This document shows positions 1 to 33,265 of a DNA stretch of 60,411 nucleotides, piece by piece. A program made the position numbers and the translations under genes. Position 1 is the first letter of the stretch. Every line of letters starts with the position of its first letter. Source of the DNA: an uncultured Gammaproteobacteria bacterium (GTDB lineage: Bacteria; Patescibacteriota; Patescibacteriia; UBA9570; CAZNEH01); NCBI GenBank assembly GCA_964572175.1, contig CAZNEH010000004.1:1-60411 (forward strand). The letters run 5' to 3'. The notes beneath the pieces were generated by a model that worked only from the letters and a program-made list of their open reading frames with translations, was not told the DNA's origin and searched no databases.

Positions 1-487
1 TTATGTAGCTGGTCAAAGCAATAGCACTTTAAACGGAGTTATTTATAAATCAGCTGATGGAGGAGAGAATTGGGACAAGTATTATACTGGCTTAATCCAA
101 GAAAGTTTTTACACCATGCTTTTCGACGGATTACTATGGGGTAATGACCGCGGACTTTTCGAAGGAAAAACTAGAGCTTCTTTAGCCGCTAGCGTTACTA
201 AATATAAAGTTAAGCAAGGAAATAAATCTACTTTTAAAGTCACCTTAAAAGATAAGGTTACCGGAGAAAAGTTAGCTAATAGAAATATTAAATTCTATAA
301 AAAAGTAGGCAAGAACGGAACTTACAAGTTGTACAAAACCAAAAAGACTAATGATAACGGGGTAACTAAAATTAAAGTAGCTATTAATAAAGTAACTAGG
401 TTTAAGGCTAAGTGGGTTCCTGGAGGAAATTCAGCTGAAGAATTTTACAAAGTCACTTCAAAAATTAGAAGAGTACGCCTAAAATAA
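1..487 (+). CDS. 5'-truncated secreted/surface protein with an Asp-box (BNR) repeat and a Lys-rich C-terminal Ig-like domain
   Basis: Frame is open from base 2: YVAGQSNSTLNGVIYKSADGGENW (SxDGGxxW Asp-box), continuing into ORF 116..487. Confidence 0.7.
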   Translation, partial: YVAGQSNSTLNGVIYKSADGGENWDKYYTGLIQESFYTMLFDGLLWGNDRGLFEGKTRASLAASVTKYKVKQGNKSTFKVTLKDKVTGEKLANRNIKFYKKVGKNGTYKLYKTKKTNDNGVTKIKVAINKVTRFKAKWVPGGNSAEEFYKVTSKIRRVRLK

Positions 488-500
488 AGCTCTAAAATAT

Positions 501-530
501 AAAAACACCTGGACTAACCGGGTGTTTTTT
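501..530 (+). terminator. Intrinsic terminator (possibly bidirectional)
   Basis: aaaaacacctgg-actaa-ccgggtgtttttt hairpin with T-run. Confidence 0.7.
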
Positions 531-565
531 GTTATGATAAATAAACAAAATTAATATTATTTATC

Positions 566-1288
566 ATGATTATTTCCCACAAACACAAGTTTATTTTCAC
601 CAAACCTAGAAAAGTAGCTGGCACCAGCGTTGAGGTTGCTTTGTCTAAATATTGCGGTGAAGACGACATTATTACTGAAAACGTTTCTTCTAAAGACATT
701 GACGAAACTAGCTATACAGATTACGCTCGCAATCACGAAGGCTATTTCAATCATATGCGGGCTGGTCGAATCAAAGAAAACATAGGGGATAAGATCTGGG
801 ATGAATACTTTGTTTTTACTATTGTTCGAAATCCTTGGGACATGCTAGTGTCTCGTTACTTTTGGAACATAAAAAATGCCACTCCTCGCAAAAGCCCTCT
901 TCAAGTATTGGGTGAAATAATTAAAAACCCATTAAACAAAGATTTATATGGAAAACTAATTAATTCTTTCCGCCGTAGAGAACTAAAACCAGGTGACGAC
1001 TTTAAAACATTTTGTTATAAAAAATTACCCCCAAATATTTCCAATACTAAATATTATTTCGACAAAAACGACAAGCCTTATAATAATTTTGTTATTCGTT
1101 ACGAAAATTTAGACCAAGACTACAAAACAGTTTGCGAAAAGATCGGCCTTCCTTACGAGCCTCTTCCATCTCTAAAAACCAAGACCAGAAAGAAAAGAGA
1201 TTACAAAGAAATGTATGATGACGAGCTTAGGGATTGGGTAGCTAAGAAATTTTCTAAAGAAATTGACCACTTTGGATATAAATTTTAA
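566..1288 (+). CDS. Sulfotransferase family 2 protein
   Basis: N-terminal 'IISHKHKFIF...KVAGTS' PAPS loop, 'FTIVRNPWD', 'IRYENL'. Confidence 0.8.
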   Translation: MIISHKHKFIFTKPRKVAGTSVEVALSKYCGEDDIITENVSSKDIDETSYTDYARNHEGYFNHMRAGRIKENIGDKIWDEYFVFTIVRNPWDMLVSRYFWNIKNATPRKSPLQVLGEIIKNPLNKDLYGKLINSFRRRELKPGDDFKTFCYKKLPPNISNTKYYFDKNDKPYNNFVIRYENLDQDYKTVCEKIGLPYEPLPSLKTKTRKKRDYKEMYDDELRDWVAKKFSKEIDHFGYKF

Positions 1289-1297
1289 AGCCAAATT

Positions 1298-1330
1298 AAA
1301 AAGACCCCAGCTTAGGCCGAGGTCTTTTTA
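1298..1330. terminator. Bidirectional terminator between convergent genes
   Basis: aaaaagacc...ggtcttttt inverted repeat. Confidence 0.65.
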
Positions 1331-1332
1331 AT

Positions 1333-2472
1333 TTATTTAGTGAATTGCATTAGAACACGGCTGCTGTTTAGTTTGCTGCCGCTGCTTTTAGTATACTTGG
1401 CTTTGTAGTAGTAATTTCCTTTTTTCTTTGGAACAAACTTGTGGTAAAAGTATCCGTTTTTGTTAGTAGTTACTTTTTTTACTAAGTTATACTTTGTTCC
1501 AGTCTTCTTTTTTCTATAAATTCTAACAGTTTGATTATTTTTACTATTCTTTAACCAGCCGTATATTTTAGCAGTTTTTCCCCTTTTTAAACTAGATTTT
1601 TTAGGAGTAAAACTAATAGGCAGTTTTTGTTTAGCTACTATGCTTTTAGTCACAGAAGTTGTCTTGCTGATTCCGCTAGTAGTAGTGTTTCCAGCTGTAA
1701 AAACAACATCAATTTCAATTAAAGCTCCGCCCTCGTCAGTTTCAGTAATAGAGGCAAAAACTTGGTCATCATCCATAAACACCGCCATGTCAGATGGGGT
1801 TAAGTCAATTCCTTCGTAATAGCTTAAAAGCTCAATTAAGGCCGGTGGAATGTAAAAATGAACAAATCCAGAAGTTCCAGATGCTCCAGTTAAAGTAAAG
1901 CCAAAAGCTGGGTTACCTGGAGCAGGGGGAACTAGCTCGTTTTCCATTACTGTAGAAGCTAAATAACTTCCAGCCATTTGTGATGGTGGGCCATCCTCGC
2001 CCTCGGCTACCGCAAATTCTATATTTATCCCAAAGGCTGGAACTTTAGTTCCGTCCTCGTCATAAAAAGGTCTTTTTATAAAAGGAATAGTTAAAGTTCC
2101 TTCTTCAGTAGTACTGTCGTAGCTATAAGACCATGAATTATCATAGTCAACATCACCGCCCATAACAAATACCATTACTGGTCCCTCCTCAGCATCGTCG
2201 CCAGTAATTGTAAATGTAACTTCATACTCAGTTCCACGAGATATTTTTTGGCAATTCTCCCAATCAGCTCCATCACACAGAATAAAGAAGTTTTCACCTT
2301 CAGCTCCTTCTGCCTCATCGCCTTTTTCTTGCTCCATAGCACTTGATGTGATATCGGTTAAGCCATTTGAATCAGTCAAGGTGACTGTGTTTGCCGCTCT
2401 AGCTGAAAACGGCACTAGAACGATTGCAAAAGCACTTAAAGCAATTGCCATCCCCATAAATTTTTTTAACAT
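1333..2472 (-). CDS. Secreted protein: acidic N-terminal domain plus Lys-rich C-terminal Ig-like domain
   Basis: Signal peptide (AxA site), D/E-rich body, basic tail resembling the C-terminus of gene 1..487. Confidence 0.65.
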   Translation of the reverse strand: MLKKFMGMAIALSAFAIVLVPFSARAANTVTLTDSNGLTDITSSAMEQEKGDEAEGAEGENFFILCDGADWENCQKISRGTEYEVTFTITGDDAEEGPVMVFVMGGDVDYDNSWSYSYDSTTEEGTLTIPFIKRPFYDEDGTKVPAFGINIEFAVAEGEDGPPSQMAGSYLASTVMENELVPPAPGNPAFGFTLTGASGTSGFVHFYIPPALIELLSYYEGIDLTPSDMAVFMDDDQVFASITETDEGGALIEIDVVFTAGNTTTSGISKTTSVTKSIVAKQKLPISFTPKKSSLKRGKTAKIYGWLKNSKNNQTVRIYRKKKTGTKYNLVKKVTTNKNGYFYHKFVPKKKGNYYYKAKYTKSSGSKLNSSRVLMQFTK

Positions 2473-9959: not shown

Positions 9960-9988
9960 ATCTACTTTAATAATAGCATAAAATAAAT

Positions 9989-10009
9989 AATCGCGCAATA
10001 ATCGCGCAA
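9989..10009 (+). repeat. 21-bp direct repeat, left copy (AATCGCGCAATAATCGCGCAA)
   Basis: Identical copy at 11590-11610; a third ATCGCGCA unit at 10013-10020. Confidence 0.8.
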
Positions 10010-10027
10010 AATATCGCGCAATTAAAT

Positions 10028-10097
10028 AAAAAAAGCCCTCTTCCGCAGTTTACCTCGCCACAGCTTTAGCGGCGGCGGGTTCCCCGACGGAAGAGGT
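10028..10097 (-). terminator. GC-rich terminator hairpin of the 10119-10457 gene
   Basis: cctcttccg...cggaagagg stem followed by a T-run on the minus strand. Confidence 0.65.
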
Positions 10098-10602: not shown

Positions 10603-11508
10603 ATGACTATGTCCCGTCCCCCCTCGCAGAGCGACGAGCACTTCGAGTACCAGATCTACGGGGATCACCACGAGGCCACACACTGCATCGTGTTCCTGCA
10701 CGGTACCCTGCTCAGCAGCTTCGGCATGTTCACGGGCCGGCAGATCAGCCAGCTCATCGCCATGGCCGAGCGAGACCTGGGCCACAAGGTCTGCATCCTG
10801 GCCTTCACCAGGCCCGGGTACGGCCACCCCGAGATCGAGAACACCACCGTCGACTTCGGGTTCATGGCTCGCCGCTACGCCGACAAGATCCGCAAGCTGG
10901 GGTTTACCCCCCTGGCCGTGATCGGTCACTCCGGTGGCTCCCTGACGGCTCACTACCTGGCCCTCCGGCTTCACCAGAGCTACCCGGACATCCGTCTGGT
11001 CCAGATCGCCCCCACCTGCGCCAACGACGTCCTCAAGTACCACCAGTTCCAGGGCAAGCTCAAGTTCCAGTGGATCCGCGACCTCTTCAGCAAGTGGCCG
11101 CTCCTGCCCCGCCTGCTGTCCTGGTCCATCGGCCAGCTCAACAAGCGCTCGGCCAAGACCCAGTTCGAGACTTGGGCTCAAGGCGCTGACGAGTGGATGC
11201 TGAGCGATCCGGAGATGCGCGGTGGTCTGTCCGAGTCCATCCAGCGCTCGGCCAGTAACTCCCGCTGCGGCTGCGGCTTCCACCTGGACTACGAGGTCTT
11301 CGTCTCCCGGTGGCGCACCATGAAGCCCTTCCAGAACTCCCTGCTCCTGGGCTTCAGCGAGGACACCATTGTGCCCCCGGACATGGTTCGCTGCCTGGCC
11401 GACGAGGTCGAAGGTCGCTACCAGATCATGGACGGCGGCCACTTCGACGCCTGGCACCCCGAGAGCATGACCTGGACCACGGTCCTCGAGTTCTGCCTCG
11501 ACCAGTAG
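10603..11508 (+). CDS. GC-rich alpha/beta hydrolase
   Basis: FLHG, GHSGG nucleophile elbow, 'EDTIVP' acid, GGH His; strong SD AGAAAGGAGG. Confidence 0.8.
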   Translation: MTMSRPPSQSDEHFEYQIYGDHHEATHCIVFLHGTLLSSFGMFTGRQISQLIAMAERDLGHKVCILAFTRPGYGHPEIENTTVDFGFMARRYADKIRKLGFTPLAVIGHSGGSLTAHYLALRLHQSYPDIRLVQIAPTCANDVLKYHQFQGKLKFQWIRDLFSKWPLLPRLLSWSIGQLNKRSAKTQFETWAQGADEWMLSDPEMRGGLSESIQRSASNSRCGCGFHLDYEVFVSRWRTMKPFQNSLLLGFSEDTIVPPDMVRCLADEVEGRYQIMDGGHFDAWHPESMTWTTVLEFCLDQ

Positions 11509-11579: not shown

Positions 11580-11589
11580 GCTATAAAAA

Positions 11590-11610
11590 AATCGCGCAAT
11601 AATCGCGCAA
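11590..11610 (+). repeat. 21-bp direct repeat, right copy
   Basis: Identical to 9989-10009. Confidence 0.8.
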
Positions 11611-11626
11611 CCCATCCCGCAAAGAA

Positions 11627-12577
11627 TTATTGCATGTCAAAAGTTTTTTGATCTGAACTCACTAATAAATGCCCATGAGAACATTTATGTTTTTTACTAA
11701 AGAGATCTTTTTTTATAGAAATTTGTTCCAAAGTTTCTTTACGAGTGTTTCCCAAAACAACCTGATCCTTGCTTTCCACACATGGAGTAACATCACCATT
11801 AGAAAAAATATTTAGTTGTCCAGTAAAAGCAAAGCACTCTAAAGTTTTTGAGTGTTTTTTTAAAGTTACTTCCTCAGCTAGTTTACAAATTTTATAATTA
11901 TTTTCTTCATTCACAGTAGAAGCAGGAGTAGATAGTTTAATTTTTATTTGATTCCCATATTTTTCTATCATTTCCTTAGTCTTTATAAGAAGTTTCTTAT
12001 AAGCCTCTTCATTAAACTCATATTTTTCTCTCATCTCATCTTTTTTTCCTCGACCCAAAGCTTTAAAAGTTCCAAATCGAATAGTTTCAATTCCCAAGTC
12101 AATGGCAATCGTAATTATTTCCTCCATAAAATCAATATTATTTTTAGTCAAAGTAGTTCTAATTTTTACATTTACTCCTGCTTTTTGATAAGTCTTTAAA
12201 TTAGGAATAATATTTTTATATTGCGCATGCTTAGGGCGAGCAAAATTATCCAAAGAAAACATAACACTGTCAATATTTTTTTCTCTTAAAACTTTAAATT
12301 TTTCATTATAAGGAATAGTCCCATTAGTGATAATGGTCATATTTTCCAAAGTTTTAAACTCATTTAAAATTAGCGGTAAATCCAATCTCAAAAAAGGTTC
12401 ACCACCTTCGATGTGAATATCTTTGTAATCAATTTTATTTAGTTGTTGTACCACCTCAATCATTTCGTCTGTATTCAGCTCGTCTGGTAGAACATTACCA
12501 CTATCTGCTAAACAATGCTCACAGCCCAAGTTGCACTTTTCCGTAATAATTAGATGGATTAATTTATATTTTTTCAT
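11627..12577 (-). CDS. Radical SAM protein with SPASM/twitch-like C-terminus
   Basis: CNLGCEHC (CxxxCxxC), GGEPF, C-terminal C...GDVTPC...LGN. Confidence 0.85.
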   Translation of the reverse strand: MKKYKLIHLIITEKCNLGCEHCLADSGNVLPDELNTDEMIEVVQQLNKIDYKDIHIEGGEPFLRLDLPLILNEFKTLENMTIITNGTIPYNEKFKVLREKNIDSVMFSLDNFARPKHAQYKNIIPNLKTYQKAGVNVKIRTTLTKNNIDFMEEIITIAIDLGIETIRFGTFKALGRGKKDEMREKYEFNEEAYKKLLIKTKEMIEKYGNQIKIKLSTPASTVNEENNYKICKLAEEVTLKKHSKTLECFAFTGQLNIFSNGDVTPCVESKDQVVLGNTRKETLEQISIKKDLFSKKHKCSHGHLLVSSDQKTFDMQ

Positions 12578-24707: not shown

Positions 24708-24736
24708 TTGACAAAATATGAAACCTATGATAAGAT
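24708..24736 (+). promoter_or_regulatory. Sigma70 promoter upstream of the long structured leader and cassette array
   Basis: TTGACA-17-TAAGAT with extended -10 TG. Confidence 0.7.
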
Positions 24737-24742
24737 GTCTCG

Positions 24743-25450
24743 TCAAGATGAAACGCAAAGAGAAACTGGAGAAAAGCACACGAACATTACAACCTAGTAA
24801 GAGAGAGCCCAGACACTGATCCTGGGTAAACAAAAGATCAGTAGAACACGCATGTCTCTCTCGTTAACCCTTCGATACGATTTTCCTAAGGAAAATCACT
24901 CAGGGTGAAACAGTTATAGAGATATGCGTGTTCTTTTATAAAAAGGAGTTGATTAATAGAGAAGTAAACCAGAAGTAAAAGTAGAGAGATTACTTCCCTA
25001 GAAATTAAATCCTAGATTACTCTGGAATACCCAAGCCTCCTTATATAAGGCGGAACGGTAAACAACGAGTTAATCAAACGATGATTAGCAAATGAGGTTG
25101 AGAACAGTAAAACGTTTTCCCTCGCAACTACCAAAAGGTGGTTTGAGCAATCAATAGTGCACAGCTAAGTCAACTTCGGTTGACCTGGCTGGCGAGGTTC
25201 TAGGAGCGCTTGCCTAGGACTTCACCAGCCGGTTCCAGTAAATAAACGAAAGGCTACTATTCTAAATACTTCTTAAAGAGCAGGTCCAAGGTGTTGGACT
25301 AAAAGAAGGAACAGAGTAGAGGACATTGACAACTTAGTTCTCCCTAAGCTCATAACTAGATTATGTGTTTAGGGAGCATCACGAGAGACTACGGCTAAAC
25401 GCGCGTTCATCTGGGTTGTCCAGGTGCGTTCGTAAAGCAGAGTCTTTCGT
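24743..25450 (+). ncRNA. Candidate ~700-nt highly structured noncoding RNA or 5' leader
   Basis: Successive hairpins, e.g. 24843-24934, cUUCGg-capped 25162-25191, 25187-25230, 25339-25376, 25381-25450; G-U pairs favour + strand; no ORF >=60 aa in the track before 25365. Confidence 0.6.
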
Positions 25451-25470
25451 TATGTATCATGGAGTCATTT

Positions 25471-25818
25471 ATGACCAAGCTCATCAACCTGACCCCCCAC
25501 GCCCTCACCCTCCGTGCCGTCGATGGCACGGACACCACCATCGCCCCCTCGGGGACGGTGGCCCGGGTCTCCATGACCCCGGGAGTCAAGACCGAGGTCG
25601 AGGGGGTCCCGGTCCCGGTGTGGACCGCGGACGAGGTGGGGGAGGTCACCGGCCTCCCCGCCCCGCAGGAAGGCACCTTCTACATCGTCTCCGGCTTCGT
25701 CGGGTCGGCCTGCAAGGGCCGCTCCGACATCCTCGTCCCGGGCACCGGCCCCAAGGACGGGGCCGTCCGCAACGACCGCGGCCACATCCAGGCCGTGACC
25801 CGCCTCAAGCGGGTCTAG
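25471..25818 (+). CDS. GC-rich cassette A: NLTPH-motif protein, putative Crn4-like ring nuclease
   Basis: MTKLINLTPH...ARV...GLPAPQEGTFYIVS...R.D...P...R...G pattern, which I recall for the Crn4 family; GGAG SD. Confidence 0.6.
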   Translation: MTKLINLTPHALTLRAVDGTDTTIAPSGTVARVSMTPGVKTEVEGVPVPVWTADEVGEVTGLPAPQEGTFYIVSGFVGSACKGRSDILVPGTGPKDGAVRNDRGHIQAVTRLKRV

Positions 25819-25831
25819 ACGGTCACCCCTC

Positions 25832-26140
25832 CCCAGTCATGAGGCAACTGGGAATTCGGAGGACACCTCGCCTCACCCCTGGGAGCACGCGCACCGCACA
25901 CCGCGTGTCGCTCCCATCCTTTTTTCCGCTCAGTATTTCTGCGAAAAATAAACATAGCGCAGCCAAATAGTGAGCGTAAATAAGGATTCTCACATCCTGA
26001 CCAGTAAAGGCCCTATCCACCCTTTGTGGATGCGCGTTCTTCCCAGAGCGCAGAGTGGAGCCACACTGACTGGTAAAAAATCTTGACCCCCCACGGGTCC
26101 CGGGTTCATGAGCCTTTACTCTCGAAAGGAGCAAATCATG
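25832..26140 (+). repeat. Divergent copy of the inter-cassette structured module
   Basis: Pseudoknot 25832-25875, GGGAGC..GCTCCC hairpin 25881-25915, hairpin 25916-25987, multibranch motif 26000-26074, SD GAAAGGAG. Confidence 0.8.
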
Positions 26141-26503
26141 TCCAAGTCCAACAGCGTCCCCACCGCCGCCGAGGAGGCCAAAAGCCTCTTCGAAGAGACG
26201 CTCCCCACCCTCCCCACCACCATCAAGAACGGGGTCGAGCGCCCCGTCTTCCAGTTCGAGGAGTTGAAGGAGGACGGGTCCGTTTGGGTCCACTCCGGAG
26301 CGGATGGCGTCCCCCCCCGAAAGATCGGTTCCATCGGGGAGCCGATCGAGGAGATCATCCCCGACAAGATGATCTCCTCCCTGATCTTGGAGGATGGCGG
26401 GGCCGGGGGGCTCCCCTCCGAACCACAAAAGTACCGGACCTCCGTGGCCCGGCAGCTCCGCCGGGAGCTGGCCGAGAAACTCCTCGCCATGTGCGAGGAG
26501 TAG
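26138..26503 (+). CDS. GC-rich cassette B: acidic hypothetical protein
   Basis: GAAAGGAGCAAATC-ATG start; C-ending codons; MSKS N-terminus. Confidence 0.7.
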   Translation: MSKSNSVPTAAEEAKSLFEETLPTLPTTIKNGVERPVFQFEELKEDGSVWVHSGADGVPPRKIGSIGEPIEEIIPDKMISSLILEDGGAGGLPSEPQKYRTSVARQLRRELAEKLLAMCEE

Positions 26504-26504
26504 T

Positions 26505-26796
26505 GCCTAGTCCAGGCCTAAGACACGTCTGGTGAAAAAAACAACTGTCTTCAGACGGGAGCCCGCGCATCGCACACCGCGCCGGTTCCCATCCTTTTTT
26601 ATTTTCATCATCCAGCATGGTGAACATAAATAAGGATTCTCACATCCTAAACCAGTAAAGGCCCTATCTCACACCTCGCGAGATGAGCGTTTCCTAGAAA
26701 CGCAGAGTGGAGCTACACTGACTGGTTAAAAATTAGACCCCCTCGTGGGTCCCGGGTCATGATCCCGGTTACTCTTTGAAAGGAGATATCATGTCC
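26505..26796 (+). repeat. ~290-bp inter-cassette direct repeat, copy 1
   Basis: Near-identical to 27027-27317, with differences only in the first ~40 nt. Confidence 0.95.
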
Positions 26797-27024
26797 CAAT
26801 CCATCGCCACGTCCCCCCGCCCCCAGTCCACCCCCGTCCGGTGCGCGCAGTGCGTGCATTGGGTTGAGAAGATGGGGGGCTTCGGCCTCTCCGTCTCCGC
26901 CAAGGAGAAGGGATTGAAGTTTTGCCTCGGCCAAAGGGCCGAGGCCTTCACTATGGGGATGGAGGACGCCTGCGTCCTCACCCCGCCAGACCACTTCTGC
27001 GCCCTGGCAAAAAAGAAGGAGTAA
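26791..27024 (+). CDS. GC-rich cassette C: small Cys-rich protein (77 aa)
   Basis: GAAAGGAGATATC-ATG; CAQCVHW...C...C...C. Confidence 0.65.
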   Translation: MSQSIATSPRPQSTPVRCAQCVHWVEKMGGFGLSVSAKEKGLKFCLGQRAEAFTMGMEDACVLTPPDHFCALAKKKE

Positions 27025-27026
27025 GC

Positions 27027-27317
27027 GCCTAGTCCAGACCTAAGACACGTCTGGCGAAACAAAAACTGTCTTCAGACGGGAGCCCGCGCATCGCACACCG
27101 CGCCGGTTCCCATCCTTTTTTATTTTCATCATCCAGCATGGTGAACATAAATAAGGATTCTCACATCCTAAACCAGTAAAGGCCCTATCTCACACCTCGC
27201 GAGATGAGCGTTTCCTAGAAACGCAGAGTGGAGCTACACTGACTGGTTAAAAATTAGACCCCCTCGTGGGTCCCGGGTCATGATCCCGGTTACTCTTTGA
27301 AAGGAGATATCATGTCC
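27027..27317 (+). repeat. ~290-bp inter-cassette direct repeat, copy 2
   Basis: Near-identical to 26505-26796. Confidence 0.95.
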
Positions 27318-27686
27318 AAGTCCATCAACACCGCCGCCCTCGCCTCCCTTCTCGCCCCCTGGTTCGCCAGCGGCGAGGACGAGGATATCCCGACCGGATG
27401 GGAGGTCGAGGGGGCTTACGAAGAGCCCCATCGCGTCCCCCGTGTCCACGGGGAGGTGGACGGAAACCGGATCTACTGCGTAGATCCGGAGGACCACTGC
27501 CCCTTCTGGCTGGTCTGGGGGGGACCGGGAGAAATCCCGGAAAACCTGTTCCACAACGACACCGCCCTCGAGGAGCGCCACGAAAAGCTCCTCGAAATCG
27601 GCAATGCCCTCGGGGGATGGCGAGAGTGCGAGGGGTGTGGAGAGTGTGTCTCAGTGGGGGAGGTATGCCCCCATTGCGGACAATAG
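27312..27686 (+). CDS. GC-rich cassette D: acidic protein with C-terminal zinc ribbon
   Basis: GAAAGGAGATATC-ATG; CEGC...CPHC at the C-terminus. Confidence 0.7.
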   Translation: MSKSINTAALASLLAPWFASGEDEDIPTGWEVEGAYEEPHRVPRVHGEVDGNRIYCVDPEDHCPFWLVWGGPGEIPENLFHNDTALEERHEKLLEIGNALGGWRECEGCGECVSVGEVCPHCGQ

Positions 27687-27697
27687 GCGCACCCAGC

Positions 27698-27830
27698 CCA
27701 GACCTGAGCATGTCTGGACACAAACAAACAACTGTTCACCTGGAAGCGTGCGCCTTGCACCGGCCGCGCTTCCATCCTTTTTTCTTTCCATTACTCTTTC
27801 TCTCTCTAGAGTAGTGGAGGGAAAAAAGAG
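27698..27830 (+). terminator. 3' module of the last cassette: pseudoknot + GC hairpin + U-tract hairpin
   Basis: ccagac/gtctgg stem, loop tgagca pairs tgttca; tggaagcg...cgcttcca then T-run; ccattactct/agagtagtgg. Confidence 0.7.
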
Positions 27831-27888
27831 GAGAACTAAGTTGATTTAAGGCAAAAAATATGCTATACTTAATAAGTAAAATAAAAAA

Positions 27889-29007
27889 ATGACACAAATA
27901 AGATATTTTGAACAAAGTGGGGGATACTACCCTATTTTTATTACTAAAGACTCTGGAGAAGAATTAAGAATTGGAGCAGCCTCAAATTATTGGGGAAGCG
28001 TAACTCTAAGAAAAGAGTTTGACCAATTAAACCCCCAAGAGCAGCAAGAGGTTATTAGACAAATAAAAGAAAAAGTTATTACCCCGGAACAATGCGCCGA
28101 GATCAATTGGCAGAAAACAGAAAAAGATTCAAACATTACAGATTTACGACAAGATTTAACCATTTTAAAAACGTCTGGAACAACCCTAGAGCATAGTTCT
28201 AACGTATATGATAGGCACGCAACATCCGGATATTCCCCGGATGAACGACGCGGCCCAGTGTCTTACACTAAGCAAGTACGTGTCCATAAGTTGTTAATTA
28301 AAGATAAGAAATTAGAGACTATTGGAAGTTTTCGCTTTTATGGATCTCCGGATAATCTGGAAGAAGTTAAGCAAGGATTATTAAGTGAAAAAGAAGCTAC
28401 ATTAAAAATGCTGCTGTCGCAAAGAGAGAAAGTTACAAACCCTTCCTTAGATCCTAGGATTCATGAAGACTTATCTCCGGAAGAATGGAGTCAAAGATAT
28501 AAAGAACGTTTTGATGCTTTATTTCAAGAGGCACTTTCTCGATGGGAGGCCGAAGATCAAGCAGCTAGAGGAGAGCAGGAATTAAAAATACAAGAATATC
28601 AGAATGCGGTTGAAGTATTAAAGGAACTGGTGCTACAAGCAGAGGAAAAAAAAGAGGAAATAAAAAAGAAAGCTCATTTTACCGATCATCCTCAATTTCC
28701 TTATACTGATTTTCGTTCTTTGGACATGATTATATTTTTTATAGATAGAATTAAAAAATATTTAGCTGATTGTGATCAGGCCATCCTTGAAGCTGAAAAA
28801 AAGGAAAAAGAGCTGGAGCCGGAACCAGAACTTCCTTCTTCTGAGCCGAATGAGCCCGTAGAGCCAGATCCCGAACCTGAGCCTAAAACTTATCAGCCTC
28901 CTAAAGAAGCGCTTAGCTTTAACGCTCTGCAAGCTGCTTTTGGCGGAGCCGCTAAGATGGACAGAAAACCCAGGAAGAAAAGAGGTAAGAAAAATCGTAG
29001 AAGATAA
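27889..29007 (+). CDS. Hypothetical charged/coiled-coil protein with Pro-Glu linker and basic tail
   Basis: 372-aa ORF with AT-rich codons; TATACT upstream. Confidence 0.6.
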   Translation: MTQIRYFEQSGGYYPIFITKDSGEELRIGAASNYWGSVTLRKEFDQLNPQEQQEVIRQIKEKVITPEQCAEINWQKTEKDSNITDLRQDLTILKTSGTTLEHSSNVYDRHATSGYSPDERRGPVSYTKQVRVHKLLIKDKKLETIGSFRFYGSPDNLEEVKQGLLSEKEATLKMLLSQREKVTNPSLDPRIHEDLSPEEWSQRYKERFDALFQEALSRWEAEDQAARGEQELKIQEYQNAVEVLKELVLQAEEKKEEIKKKAHFTDHPQFPYTDFRSLDMIIFFIDRIKKYLADCDQAILEAEKKEKELEPEPELPSSEPNEPVEPDPEPEPKTYQPPKEALSFNALQAAFGGAAKMDRKPRKKRGKKNRRR

Positions 29008-30633: not shown

Positions 30634-31593
30634 CGTAAATTAGTCAAGACCTTTGCACCACTTCCAGTGGTGTTTGGTAGTTTATTCCCATGTGTAATCT
30701 TTCAGTATTGTAATAATGCAAATACTCATTTATCTTCCTGTTTAACCAGGGAGTATTATTCTTGTATTTAATAATTTCATCTCTCATCTCTTCTTGAATA
30801 GTTCTATTAAATCTTTCAACATGAGCATTGTCGTTAGGTTTTCTCACTCTAGAATGTCTATGCTTTATTCCAATGGGCTCAACCATAGAGGTGAAATATT
30901 TTGAGAACTCAGGGCCATTATCAGATTGAATACATCTAAAGTTAAAAGGAGTGTTTTTCCTAGCTTCTTTAAACGCTTGTAAAGAAGAATAAGTATTCAC
31001 TCTATTCATGGCTTTAGCCTGGGCCCACCTGGAATGACAATCTATTAAAGTAAAGATATAAACATTGTTTTTATTACTTTTTGGTATGTGAATAGTATCT
31101 AGTTGTCCTAAGTCCCCAGGTTTAGCTATTTTAGGACGCTTTATGTTTTGATGATACTTTTTCCAAGGAGAACGCTTTTTAATTAAACCATATTTGTCTA
31201 AGGTTCTTTTAACTGTAGAAAGACTTACTTTAATTCCTTCTCTTTTAAGTTGAGCGTGAACTATTTGAGCACATCTATTTCTTTTTAATCTTACTTCTAA
31301 TATTCTTTTTATTATTTTCTCATCTGTAGCTCGAGGGGATGTTTTGGGCCTAGAAGATAAAGTTGGAATTTCATAAATTGTGCAAGTAGATGGAGACTTC
31401 TGCAACCAACGTACCACACTAGAATGAGATACTCCAAAGTGTCTAGCTACTTTTCTAGTGCTCCAACCTTTATTTTTAACTAACATAACTGCTTTTGCCC
31501 TGACCTTGGGCAAATAGGGATTTGTTGTATATGGCATATGATTTATCATACCTTAAAATAGGTTAGGTGGTGCAAAGGTATTGAACCATTACG
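30634..31593 (-). mobile_element. IS481-family insertion sequence, 960 bp, 6-bp TSD GCACCC
   Basis: Imperfect terminal IRs (cgtaa..tcaagacctttgcaccac / gtggtgcaaaggtattga..ttacg); GCACCC at 30628-30633 and 31594-31599. Confidence 0.85.
30644..31537 (-). CDS. IS481-family DDE transposase
   Basis: HTH N-terminus; QLDT, QSDNGPEF, NAHVERFNRT, YNTERLH; likely start MPYTTNP. Confidence 0.9.
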   Translation of the reverse strand: MPYTTNPYLPKVRAKAVMLVKNKGWSTRKVARHFGVSHSSVVRWLQKSPSTCTIYEIPTLSSRPKTSPRATDEKIIKRILEVRLKRNRCAQIVHAQLKREGIKVSLSTVKRTLDKYGLIKKRSPWKKYHQNIKRPKIAKPGDLGQLDTIHIPKSNKNNVYIFTLIDCHSRWAQAKAMNRVNTYSSLQAFKEARKNTPFNFRCIQSDNGPEFSKYFTSMVEPIGIKHRHSRVRKPNDNAHVERFNRTIQEEMRDEIIKYKNNTPWLNRKINEYLHYYNTERLHMGINYQTPLEVVQRS

Positions 31594-31628: not shown

Positions 31629-31673
31629 GTTTAGTCAGTTTCACCTGTTCTTTCCCCCAAAAAACCAAGGCCC

Positions 31674-31710
31674 CATGAGCCTGCAACTTAGAAAGGAGCA
31701 AATCATGTCC
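31674..31710 (+). repeat. 37-bp translation-start repeat (CATGAGCCTGCAACTTAGAAAGGAGCAAATCATGTCC)
   Basis: Identical at 32827-32863; related at 26107-26143. Confidence 0.9.
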
Positions 31711-32688
31711 CAGTCCACCTCCATCGCCACCATCATCGTCACCCACGGCGGTGAGTTCCACGCCGACGACGTGTTCTCCGGAGCAGTGCTCTCGGCCCTG
31801 GCCCCCGAGGCCGAGGTCGTCCGCACCCGCGACGAAGAGTGCTTGTCCTCGGCCACCTCCGAGAACGGCCCCATCGTCTTCGACGTCGGCGGCGACTACG
31901 ATGCCACCCTGCGCAACTTCGACCACCACCAGGAAGATGGAGCCGGCACCCGCCCCAACGGCGTGCCCTACTCCAGCTTCGGCCTCATCTGGCAGTACTA
32001 CGGCCGCCTGTACCTGGTCAAGGTACTGGGTAGCGAGCTCAACCTCGACTACAGCGACCTCCACAAGATGGTCGACGAAGACTTGGTCCAGGGCATCGAC
32101 AGCATCGACACCGGTGCGGTCGTCAACCCGTACTTCCAGCCCCAGATCAAGGACAACGAGGTTTCGGTCGACGTGTCCACGGTCTCCAAGGCCGTGTTCG
32201 CCATGAACCCCCAGCCCTTGCTCGGCGACCAGGACTACGACTCCGAGTACCTCCAGGCCGTGGCCGTGGCCCAGTCCCTCCTCCAGGGTGTGGTCAAGGC
32301 CTGCGCCGCCAAGCTGCTCGGCAAGACCCTCATTAAGTCCGGCCGCCGCTTCACCGACCGCATCGTGGTCGTCGAGGAGAACGTCCCCGAATGGTGGAAG
32401 ATCGTCTCCGACCCGGACAGCGGCTTCTCCGAGGCGCTCTACTACCTCGAGCCGGACCAGTCCACCCCCGGCGCCTGGATGATCTGGTTGGTCCGGAAGA
32501 CCCCCGACACCTTCGAGGGCCGCAAGTCCCTGCCCGCCGCCTGGGCCGGCAAGCGGGGTGGGGAACTGGACCAGATCACCGGCCTCACCGGCTGCGTCTT
32601 CGTCCACCCCGGCCGCTTCGTTGGCGGGGCCAAGGACCTGGACACGGCCATCGCCATGGCCAAGCTGGCCATCGAGATCGAGGACTAG
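31705..32688 (+). CDS. GC-rich cassette E: MYG1-family (UPF0160) exonuclease/phosphoesterase
   Basis: THGGEFHADDV, VRTRD, DVGG, FDHHQ, SSFGLIW, FVH motifs. Confidence 0.9.
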   Translation: MSQSTSIATIIVTHGGEFHADDVFSGAVLSALAPEAEVVRTRDEECLSSATSENGPIVFDVGGDYDATLRNFDHHQEDGAGTRPNGVPYSSFGLIWQYYGRLYLVKVLGSELNLDYSDLHKMVDEDLVQGIDSIDTGAVVNPYFQPQIKDNEVSVDVSTVSKAVFAMNPQPLLGDQDYDSEYLQAVAVAQSLLQGVVKACAAKLLGKTLIKSGRRFTDRIVVVEENVPEWWKIVSDPDSGFSEALYYLEPDQSTPGAWMIWLVRKTPDTFEGRKSLPAAWAGKRGGELDQITGLTGCVFVHPGRFVGGAKDLDTAIAMAKLAIEIED

Positions 32689-32715: not shown

Positions 32716-32810
32716 GGGAGCCGCGCGCACCGTGCCTCACGTACACCGCGTGCCGCTCCCATCCTTTTTCCCCTTCATTATTCTAAAAAATAGTGAATGG
32801 AAAAGAGGAT
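32716..32810 (+). terminator. Cassette GC hairpin plus U-tract-sequestering hairpin
   Basis: GGGAGCCGCGCG...CGCGTGCCGCTCCC ATCCTTTTTCC ... GGAAAAGAGGAT. Confidence 0.7.
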
Positions 32811-32857
32811 TTCCCCTCAAGGCTTTCATGAGCCTGCAACTTAGAAAGGAGCAAATC

Positions 32858-33193
32858 ATGTCCGTCAACCGTTACTTCAATACCGCCCTCGGCCTTAGCA
32901 TGCTTCCGGACGGCGAGTTCTCCGTCCAGACCATTACCCCCGAGGCCGCCGCGGCTTGGCTGCTGGAAGGTCACCAGAACGTGGCCAACCCCAACCACAG
33001 CAACTCCCTGCAGGCCATCACCCAGAAGATCGACGTCGACATGCGCGACGCCAAGGGCGGCCGCATCACCCTCGAGCCGGGCGATCAGTGCTTGGTGGCC
33101 CAGATCGGCGGGATTCCCCGCGAGACGCGGGAGTTCACAGACGAGGAGATCGCCGCGGCCACCTTCACCTTCCGGCTGGTGACCGTCAAGTAG
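32858..33193 (+). CDS. GC-rich cassette F: divergent DUF1874 (AcrIII-1/Crn2 ring nuclease-like) protein
   Basis: By-eye colinear match to STIV B116-type proteins: NTALGLSML, NPNHSNS (His), RITLEPGDQCLV, PRETREFTDEEI, FTFRLV; 111 aa. Confidence 0.65.
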   Translation: MSVNRYFNTALGLSMLPDGEFSVQTITPEAAAAWLLEGHQNVANPNHSNSLQAITQKIDVDMRDAKGGRITLEPGDQCLVAQIGGIPRETREFTDEEIAAATFTFRLVTVK

Positions 33194-33220
33194 TCACCGC
33201 CTCCGCACCTTCTTCCCTCC

Positions 33221-33265
33221 GGGAGCCGCGCGCAACACCCCGCGCGCCGCTCCCTCTTTTTATTT
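33221..33265 (+). terminator. Cassette GC hairpin terminator
   Basis: GGGAGCCGCGCG...CGCGCGCCGCTCCC + T-rich tail. Confidence 0.75.

Follow-up and report, generated by a model that had tools for sequence, protein, structure and literature searches.

What are the short, multibranched sequences that recur ahead of three small genes of foreign appearance on one contig of an ultra-small marine bacterium? The window analyzed here is that entire contig, CAZNEH010000004.1 of assembly GCA_964572175.1 (60,411 nucleotides, nt), which belongs to a 1.08-Mb genome of 51 contigs placed in the Patescibacteriota, 98% complete and with an overall guanine plus cytosine (GC) content of 37.8%. A sequence-only reading of this DNA had singled out a motif upstream of three gene cassettes, termed B, C and D, had not recognized it as a known riboswitch or ribozyme, and had proposed a 5′ processing element, a riboswitch or a packaging signal that gives each cassette its own 5′ end. 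By comparing copies, folding them and searching for relatives, we conclude that the motif appears to be a real, well-formed and unclassified structured leader module, private to one locus within the reach of our searches. On balance, we lean toward the view that it has a function, as a cis-acting leader RNA of one kind or another.

Copies and fold of the motif

The motif folds as a four-way junction in which a closing helix (P1), a conserved single strand and three hairpin arms meet. Cassettes B, C and D each have one copy in their 5′ leader, at the following positions.

26000..26074, + strand: motif copy B; P1 of 6 base pairs (bp); junction strand AAAGGCCCU; arm 1 of 6 bp with a 5-nt loop; arm 2 of 7 bp (one U-G) with a 4-nt loop; arm 3
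26651..26726, + strand: motif copy C; P1 of 6-7 bp; junction strand as in copy B; arm 1 of 5 bp with a 9-nt loop; arm 2 of 7 bp with a 3-nt loop; arm 3
27172..27247, + strand: motif copy D; letter-identical to copy C; within the 288-nt repeat 27057-27344

Exactly three occurrences of the 14-mer ACCAGTAAAGGCCC are present in the window and three in the whole genome, and a covariance model built from copies C and D recovers the same three sites (110.4, 110.4 and 68.1 bits). Both methods thus return the sites, and no others, at which the sequence-only reading had placed the motif. Its description of P1 (ACCAGT/ACTGGT), the junction (AAAGGCCCT), arm 1 (ATCCAC/GTGGAT versus ATCTC/GAGAT) and arm 2 (GCGTTCT/AGAGCGC versus GCGTTTC/GAAACGC) likewise agrees with the letters. 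Arm 3 had been drawn as a stem opening with CAG, which is only partly right: the pairing AG-A-GTG/YAC-A-CT around a GAGC loop is possible, but the C belongs to arm 2 as its last base, and a second register, AGTG/CACT with a 6-nt loop, exists and is the one selected by RNAalifold and by minimum free energy (MFE) folds. Arm 3 is invariant but for one C/U and shows no covariation.

Copies C and D are contained in direct repeats of 288 nt that are 96% identical (26536-26823 and 27057-27344). Since the two copies are identical, the locus supplies two independent motif sequences, not three, and a shuffle control (58 of 500) is uninformative. Independently assembled contigs from one DNA run, probably of the source sample, match positions 24800-26572 without differences. 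No contig from that run bridges C to D, and a 254-nt contig of the C/D repeat fits two places. Because the independently built contigs break at this repeat (26543-27344), the tandem order B-C-D rests on the original assembly. Strain-to-strain variation in cassette content is possible.

Divergence that preserves pairing

Over the 23 modeled pairs, all 45 cells are standard pairs; displacing the 3′ partners by 1-3 columns lowers this proportion to 28-42%. Differences between versions B and C are unevenly placed. Only one of 43 positions differs across P1, the 9-nt junction strand and arm 3 (no change in the first 18 nt, one in the last 25), compared with 82-91% identity in the flanking leader segments. 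Arms 1 and 2 have diverged in stem, in loop sequence and in loop length with every pair kept (0 of 12 disrupted). In these two arms 9 of 24 stem bases changed, as four double compensatory changes and one U-A/U-G exchange, a count that is statistically weak because it comes from two sequences aligned by hand, starting at the outermost pair and moving inwards. The compensatory changes that had been pointed out in arms 1 and 2 are thus confirmed, for two independent sequences. Three of the double changes are pairs of transitions and the fourth is a double transversion (A-U to C-G).

Folding also distinguishes the strands. The + strand copies have MFE values of -28.2 and -24.5 kcal/mol, with z scores against shuffled sequences of -2.88 and -2.66; the - strand is unremarkable (-1.34 and -1.16). 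The U-G pair that copy B has in arm 2, taken with the better + strand scores, fits an RNA read in the sense of the open reading frames (ORFs).

These data bear on the possibility that the module is a functionless relic, namely a palindrome of a donor element that was duplicated with the leader and whose pairs were kept by templated quasi-palindrome correction at the DNA level or by chance transitions. Such an origin would suit an element with three copies in one homologous leader context, two of them products of a recent 96% duplication, and a leader family that is restricted to one contig and has no relatives in our searches. If nine changes are confined to transitions, all 12 pairs are spared in 7,495 of 200,000 trials (3.7%). 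Leaders of two further cassettes, E and F, lack the module, so the cassette design can do without it. Chance preservation is far rarer when the nine changes are random (15 of 200,000 trials), and the four double changes include a double transversion. DNA-level correction is hard to reconcile with the U-G pair, where a DNA hairpin would have a T-G mismatch, or with a - strand that folds no better than shuffles. The concentration of divergence in the arms, with junction, P1 and arm 3 conserved above the surrounding leader, is unlike neutral decay. Because the sequences are so few, we keep a relic in play as a doubtful but serious explanation.

Searches for known families and relatives

Against Rfam 15 (4227 models, with membership defined as a score at or above the gathering score), the whole window gave no match at the gathering level, in keeping with the suspicion that the motif belongs to no described family. 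When the threshold was relaxed to E≤10 over 25200-27900, no + strand match overlapped a copy, ribozyme and tRNA models included; the sole overlap was minus-strand hairpin noise from mir-1912 (17.9 bits versus a gathering score of 72). ARAGORN reported no genes, hence the motif is not a transfer RNA (tRNA) or a transfer-messenger RNA.

Resemblance to tRNA is real at the level of outline. The motif is 75-76 nt long, has cloverleaf topology and closes with a helix of 6-7 bp. It departs from tRNA in a junction strand of 9 nt where tRNA has 2, in an arm 2 of 7 bp with a 3-4-nt loop, and in having neither a T-loop nor CCA. A compact multi-stem fold of this size near the 5′ end of three tandem cassettes, with a conserved internal A·A mismatch in one register of arm 3, could be taken for a self-cleaving or RNase-targeted element, such as a RiboJ-type insulator or a tRNA-like RNase P substrate, that trims the leader to a uniform 5′ end. 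No self-cleaving ribozyme family or tRNA model was hit even at E≤10, nor did ARAGORN find anything, and the loops of arm 2 (3-4 nt) and arm 3 (4-6 nt) are neither an anticodon loop nor a T loop. The hammerhead core consists of CUGANGA...GAAA around a three-way junction, whereas the motif reads CUGACUG. We regard processing of this kind as very unlikely.

Covariance models built from C/D (R1) and from B, C and D (R2) were used to look for relatives. In the genome itself they found the three known copies only. They gave no match in 31 other genomes of the order, none in 150 genomes of the class (best 16.7 bits, E 0.57) and none in five genomes that bear homologues of Crn4, the ring nuclease family to which the gene heading the array is related (see below). 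The best R2 score around seven Crn4 homologues in class genomes (14.4 bits, E 0.049) was dismissed as noise, since it lies in a stretch of 73% GC within the Crn4 ORF.

Pattern scans, whose only requirement was the junction strand together with a portion of P1 or arm 3, covered larger collections. Of the scans of the viral collection, one returned nothing and another a single chance match in a coding region; a metagenome collection of 241 million records returned one chance match, in a glutaredoxin-like ORF of an AT-rich contig. In one genome each for 185,579 species, four matches were found against about eight expected by our own estimate, none of them with the arms; their R2 scores of 12.8-22.3 bits are biased upward because the pattern had chosen them. 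Among 400 genomes of the phylum, the pattern matched once and a reversed control pattern three times.

Nucleotide comparisons were equally barren. By blastn, 25200-27900 had no counterpart in 50,697 phage records, 25860-27320 had none in 72,556 plasmids, and the leader yielded only a 26-nt match (E 0.007) in 100 relatives. The motif was absent from seven viral loci that share the same ribosome-binding word, a Shine-Dalgarno (SD) sequence followed by ATGTCC, and from viral contigs at loci sought through the B, C and D proteins. Among the papers listed by full-text searches on structured RNA, riboswitches, GC-rich DNA, genomic islands and horizontal gene transfer in Patescibacteria, none was found that deals with such a motif. 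Thus the searched collections held no copy elsewhere; they possibly do not include this genome or its near relatives, so that strain-level relatives may exist.

Leader architecture

Cassettes B, C, D, E and F form a five-member family that is GC-rich and has a common core leader ahead of unrelated ORFs; A precedes B in the array. The elements around the motif are listed below.

25881..25925, + strand: cassette A terminator; GGGAGC..GCTCCC stem and T-run, directly upstream of the B box; family members at ~26557-26600, 27078-27121, 27742-27785 and 32720-32770
25967..25998, + strand: conserved box before copy B (ATAGTGAGCGTAAATAAGGATTCTCACATCCT), containing AAGGAT; equivalents at 26617-26648 and 27138-27169, and a diverged one before cassette F
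26085..26099, + strand: hairpin H1 (GACCC..GGGTC), after the A-rich linker of copy B; equivalents at 26735-26752 and 27256-27273
26102..26140, + strand: core leader of cassette B; TCATGAGCC box, SD AAGGAG at 26126-26131, ATG at 26138; common to C, D, E and F
26752..26768, + strand: hairpin CCGGGTCATGATCCCGG then TTACTCTTTG, terminator-like, just 5′ of the cassette C SD; same at 27273-27289 for D

The conserved box is common to B, C, D and F (ATAGTGA..AAATAAGGATT) and lies directly 3′ of the terminator of the preceding cassette. Terminators of the GGGAGC..GCTCCCATCCTTTTT type occur in B, C, D and E; that of F (33220-33260) differs. Within the box, AAGGAT (GAGGAT in F) is identical at 5 of 6 positions to TAGGAT, the -10 element of the cassette E promoter TTGACA-17-TAGGAT, and from this likeness the box may be a promoter-like element. 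Consensus promoters are found only at cassette E and upstream of A (24708-24736).

Each motif copy starts 2-3 nt past the end of a box (box ends 25998, 26648 and 27169; motif starts 26000, 26651 and 27172). Four-way junction, A-rich linker and H1, a 5-bp GC hairpin whose minus strand reads as a terminator-like hairpin with a T-run, together make up a module of about 110 nt between box and core leader in B, C and D. In leader F the box joins the core leader directly, leader E likewise has no module, and the leader of cassette A lacks the motif. The module is therefore an optional add-on and not a general cassette boundary, and the idea that it gives every cassette its own 5′ end does not hold for A, E and F.

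From B to F the core leader follows one plan: TCATGAGCC, 8-14 nt, AAGGAG, 5-6 nt and ATGTCC. This leader family is found nowhere else in the genome and is confined to this contig. With CACCUCCUUU at the 3′ end of the host 16S rRNA, the AAGGAG sites can serve as SDs. All five ORFs start ATG TCC (Met-Ser). In all five leaders a UCAUGA box can pair with AUCAUG of the start codon, with the SD enclosed (26106-26143, 26757-26796, 27278-27317, 31673-31710 and 32826-32863), and the predicted folds of E and F contain this pairing, between CAUGA in the box and UCAUG at the start codon, again with the SD inside the hairpin.

Repetition of the motif between cassettes raises a further possibility, that it acts as DNA: an attC-like or other recombination site, or a mobile palindrome of the repetitive extragenic palindrome (REP) or miniature inverted-repeat transposable element (MITE) type, by which cassettes are moved. 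An imperfect inverted repeat does close a 75-bp element between cassettes, and the cassettes look swappable, with common boundaries around unrelated ORFs. The core sites of attC read RYYYAAC/GTTRRRY, and the closing helix of C/D reads AAC...GTT. Copy B lacks AAC/GTT ends, however, and neither of its ends fits the attC core, to which C/D conform only in part. Cassettes A, E and F do without the motif, which is thus no general boundary; where present, it stands on the 5′ side of ORFs that have terminators of their own, not on the 3′ side of promoterless cassettes. Its three genomic copies share one context, unlike a dispersed REP/MITE repeat, and the 57 window ORFs that were scanned include no tyrosine recombinase. 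A DNA-level site is highly improbable.

Small genes set between repeated signals are also seen in phages. According to the account of promoter-early stem-loop (PeSL) cassettes in T4-type phages by Arbiol et al. (2010, PMC2839356), a repeated promoter and terminator stem-loop bracket ORFans and may allow modular shuffling. As in PeSL cassettes and phage morons, unrelated ORFs here lie between common modules, namely the putative promoter box, the core leader and the terminator. Unlike PeSL, the boundary contains a multibranch leader RNA as an optional extra module, and the cassettes reside in a bacterial chromosome, not in a phage.

Does the module switch the leader?

An element with variable paired arms, an invariant junction strand and an invariant arm 3 bears the usual signature of a binding RNA. 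Riboswitch aptamers are built on multi-helix junctions, SAM-I being an example, and the motif resembles that type in its closing P1, variable paired arms, conserved junction nucleotides and position in a 5′ leader ahead of an SD. The junction could therefore be an aptamer or operator for a small molecule or protein, jointly setting translation or premature termination of B, C and D. Details of the leaders invite such a view. One element in three tandem cassettes would make a small regulon, and the Crn4-like neighbor A makes a signaling context conceivable. The sequence UUACUCU just 5′ of the SD is confined to the motif-bearing leaders (E and F have CAACUUAG there) and can pair with the SD or with AGUAA(AGGC) at P1 and the junction. 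Between motif and SD, a terminator-like hairpin followed by U-rich sequence is present in leaders C and D, and B has only a weak counterpart of it.

The predicted folding ensembles show no conserved switch. In B, GCCTTTACT of the core leader (26112-26120) is complementary to AGTAAAGGC of the motif (26003-26011), which allows a 9-bp pairing of AGUAAAGGC in P1 and the junction with GCCUUUACU just 5′ of the SD. This pairing competes with P1, whose equilibrium probability in the full B leader is 0.04. Only 5 bp of the alternative are left in C and D, where P1 reaches probabilities of 0.91 and 0.905, respectively. With P1 forced versus blocked, the predicted accessibility of GGAG, the SD core, is 0.18/0.22 in B, 0.21/0.20 in C and 0.16/0.16 in D. 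A P1-dependent SD switch was accordingly set aside as unsupported by ensemble predictions, and an SD accessibility that is predicted to be the same in either state would fit a free-standing domain better than a switch.

Three further candidates were rejected. A leader peptide through box and motif would have an open frame in B, a stop at 26654-26656 in C, a 1-nt indel and no SD; because the frame differs between B and C, the motif is not coding. Mimicry of the anti-SD by the arm 1 loops (CCUUU in B, CACCUC in C) is not conserved and offers no in-register SD pairing. A CsrA operator, for which GGA at the arm 3 loop and in the SD might be considered, is at odds with a genome that has no CsrA gene.

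Other observations also tell against a sensor. The three ORFans behind the motif are unrelated, with no functional class in common. Known riboswitch classes are widespread, whereas no copy was found beyond this locus in the searched collections. In contrast to known riboswitches, the motif has no Rfam match, phylogenetic spread, coherent gene association or P1-coupled platform in the folding ensemble. The riboswitch proposed in the sequence-only reading fits poorly with the three ORFans, which are unrelated to one another, and with leaders for which no P1-coupled expression platform is predicted. An elaborate junction with an invariant strand nevertheless argues for specific binding, and for that reason we retain a regulatory sensor or operator as an unlikely candidate.

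A proposed constitutive leader domain

Predicted autonomous folding and a 5′-proximal position favor a different reading, that the motif is an autonomous structural domain near the 5′ end that constitutively stabilizes or insulates the cassette mRNA. We advance it tentatively, as one possibility that we would pursue first. The order of elements (terminator, box, module, SD, ORF, terminator) suggests that the module is transcribed as the 5′-proximal part of the B, C and D mRNAs. If transcription started 6-8 nt past AAGGAT, the distance between the 5′ end and P1 would be about 4-6 nt. So placed, a compact stable domain a few nt from the predicted 5′ end may shield a short mRNA from decay that depends on that end. 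The junction domain may also keep upstream sequence from disturbing the core leader, whose hairpin would enclose the SD and start codon. The start site position, like any effect on stability or translation, is what we infer from the sequence.

Known 5′-terminal mRNA stabilizers are single hairpins, such as those in the Escherichia coli ompA 5′ untranslated region and the Bacillus subtilis aprE and ermC leaders. The module would resemble them in presenting a stable structure a few nt from the presumed 5′ end of a short mRNA and in being independent of the coding sequence behind it, portable between unrelated ORFs. It differs from these single hairpins in being a four-way junction with a conserved 9-nt strand, and its 5′ end is a predicted one.

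Several considerations weigh against a constitutive stabilizer or insulator. One hairpin suffices for a 5′ stabilizer; a three-arm junction with an invariant strand of 9 nt is over-elaborate for that task and looks more like a binding pocket. Near-invariance outside arms 1 and 2, above the 82-91% of the neighboring segments, hints at sequence-specific recognition. In the full B leader the competing 9-bp pairing leaves P1 poorly populated, as described above, and a promoter scan gives no consensus promoter upstream of B, C or D. The material consists of two independent sequences from one locus of one metagenome-assembled genome, so that the statistics are weak, and the transitions-only null is not a negligible one.

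Cassette genes and neighborhood

The cassette genes are as follows.

25471..25818, + strand: cassette A ORF; 115 amino acids (aa), Crn4b-like ring nuclease; heads the array
26138..26503, + strand: cassette B ORF; 121 aa; no Atlas match
26791..27024, + strand: cassette C ORF; 77 aa, Cys-rich
27312..27686, + strand: cassette D ORF; 124 aa, C-terminal CxxC..CxxC
31705-32688, + strand: cassette E; MYG1/UPF0160-family protein (E 1.2e-61)
32858-33193, + strand: cassette F; weak likeness to STIV B116-like proteins (E 1.1e-3, below the Pfam cut-off) and to Csx16 (E 7.8e-5)

The proteins of cassettes B, C and D could be assigned to none of the families in Pfam, PHROG and PADLOC. A search of 5.8 billion clusters gave no homologue of the cassette D protein, and cassette F has no sequence match in the PDB. 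Cassette A matches PADLOC Unk_01 (E 2.9e-20) and the PDB entry 9r7b, 'Crn4b' (E 8.3e-6), with its N-terminal LINLTPH aligned. In the Crn4 paper, Unk01 is equated with Crn4, conserved Thr, His and Arg residues are described, and Crn4b of phages and plasmids is proposed to act as an anti-CRISPR (PMC12830947). A family search of the present genome found no Cas1 and no Csm1-type Cas10, in a search that did not extend to Cmr2-type Cas10.

Of 400 other genomes in the class, 7 carry Crn4 homologues, which at the profiled loci lie in stretches of 55-70% GC. The closest (49% identity; locus 1-2200, minus strand) heads a GC-rich gene run behind a TTGACA promoter in an AT-rich flank. The genes behind it include a 164-aa ORF and a P-loop-like ORF of more than 283 aa, a layout that resembles the A-D array.

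Judged by these sequence likenesses, cassette A may be an anti-defense gene of an epibiont, and A, E and F together hint at a cyclic-oligonucleotide theme. A counter-defense island around cassette A is conceivable, with no direct bearing on the function of the motif. Were the two connected, the junction could be a sensor RNA of a new class that responds to an immune signal such as cyclic oligoadenylate, with the fast-evolving ORFan cassettes B-D as candidate anti-defense genes directly behind the Crn4-like gene, in a genome that yielded neither Cas1 nor Csm1-type Cas10. We give this little credence; if true, an epibiotic ultra-small bacterium would switch on counter-defense when its host or its own cell signals attack.

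Upstream of A, the consensus promoter reads TTGACA-17-TAAGAT with a TGn element (24708-24736, + strand) and is followed by about 720 nt with no ORF of at least 60 aa. This region, which extends to 25470 and contains a long hairpin at ~25186-25234, could be a long structured leader or a noncoding RNA. Its sole Rfam signal, a sub-threshold match to RT-14 at 24858-25000, was rejected as a case of membership (29.9 bits versus a gathering score of 48.1, E 0.074). Directly upstream of the cassette E promoter lies an rve-family (DDE) transposase gene with an N-terminal helix-turn-helix (30644-31549, - strand), the sole transposase among the 57 ORFs scanned.

Base composition sets the cassettes apart from the rest of the contig. 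Stretches of 55-63% GC occur at ~10.0-11.6 kilobases (kb), 25.3-27.8 kb and 31.6-33.3 kb in a surrounding background of about 35%; genome-wide, a sliding-window count with RNA genes left in gives 121 stretches of at least 52% GC. The first GC-rich island of the contig holds an alpha/beta hydrolase gene (10603-11508) and a small ORF on the opposite strand, and is bracketed by 44-nt direct repeats with AATCGCGCAA units (9985-10028 and 11586-11629; 82% identity).

Elsewhere the contig carries ordinary chromosomal genes (der/engA, hisS, lepB, pth, ftsA, ftsZ, nrdD, nrdR, ybeY and a LytR-family gene), and it also encodes a protein of 2217 aa in which a type IV secretion pilin domain is recognized. 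Because housekeeping genes such as ftsA, ftsZ and der are aboard, the contig is part of the chromosome of an ultra-small bacterium and not a phage. A packaging signal, the last of the roles put forward for the motif, is unlikely on a chromosomal contig that carries ftsA, ftsZ, der, hisS, pth and nrdD.

Conclusions

As it stands, the motif is a two-sequence orphan, a useful search seed and not yet a family. Should it act as a stabilizer or insulator, it would provide a compact natural part for context-independent expression. Should it act as a sensor, it would represent a new regulatory RNA class linked to a possible counter-defense island. GC-rich, self-contained cassettes of poorly understood origin are scattered in large numbers through Patescibacteria genomes, this one among them. 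In either case, an RNA module that can be attached to such cassettes would be one piece of the poorly understood logic by which they are expressed.

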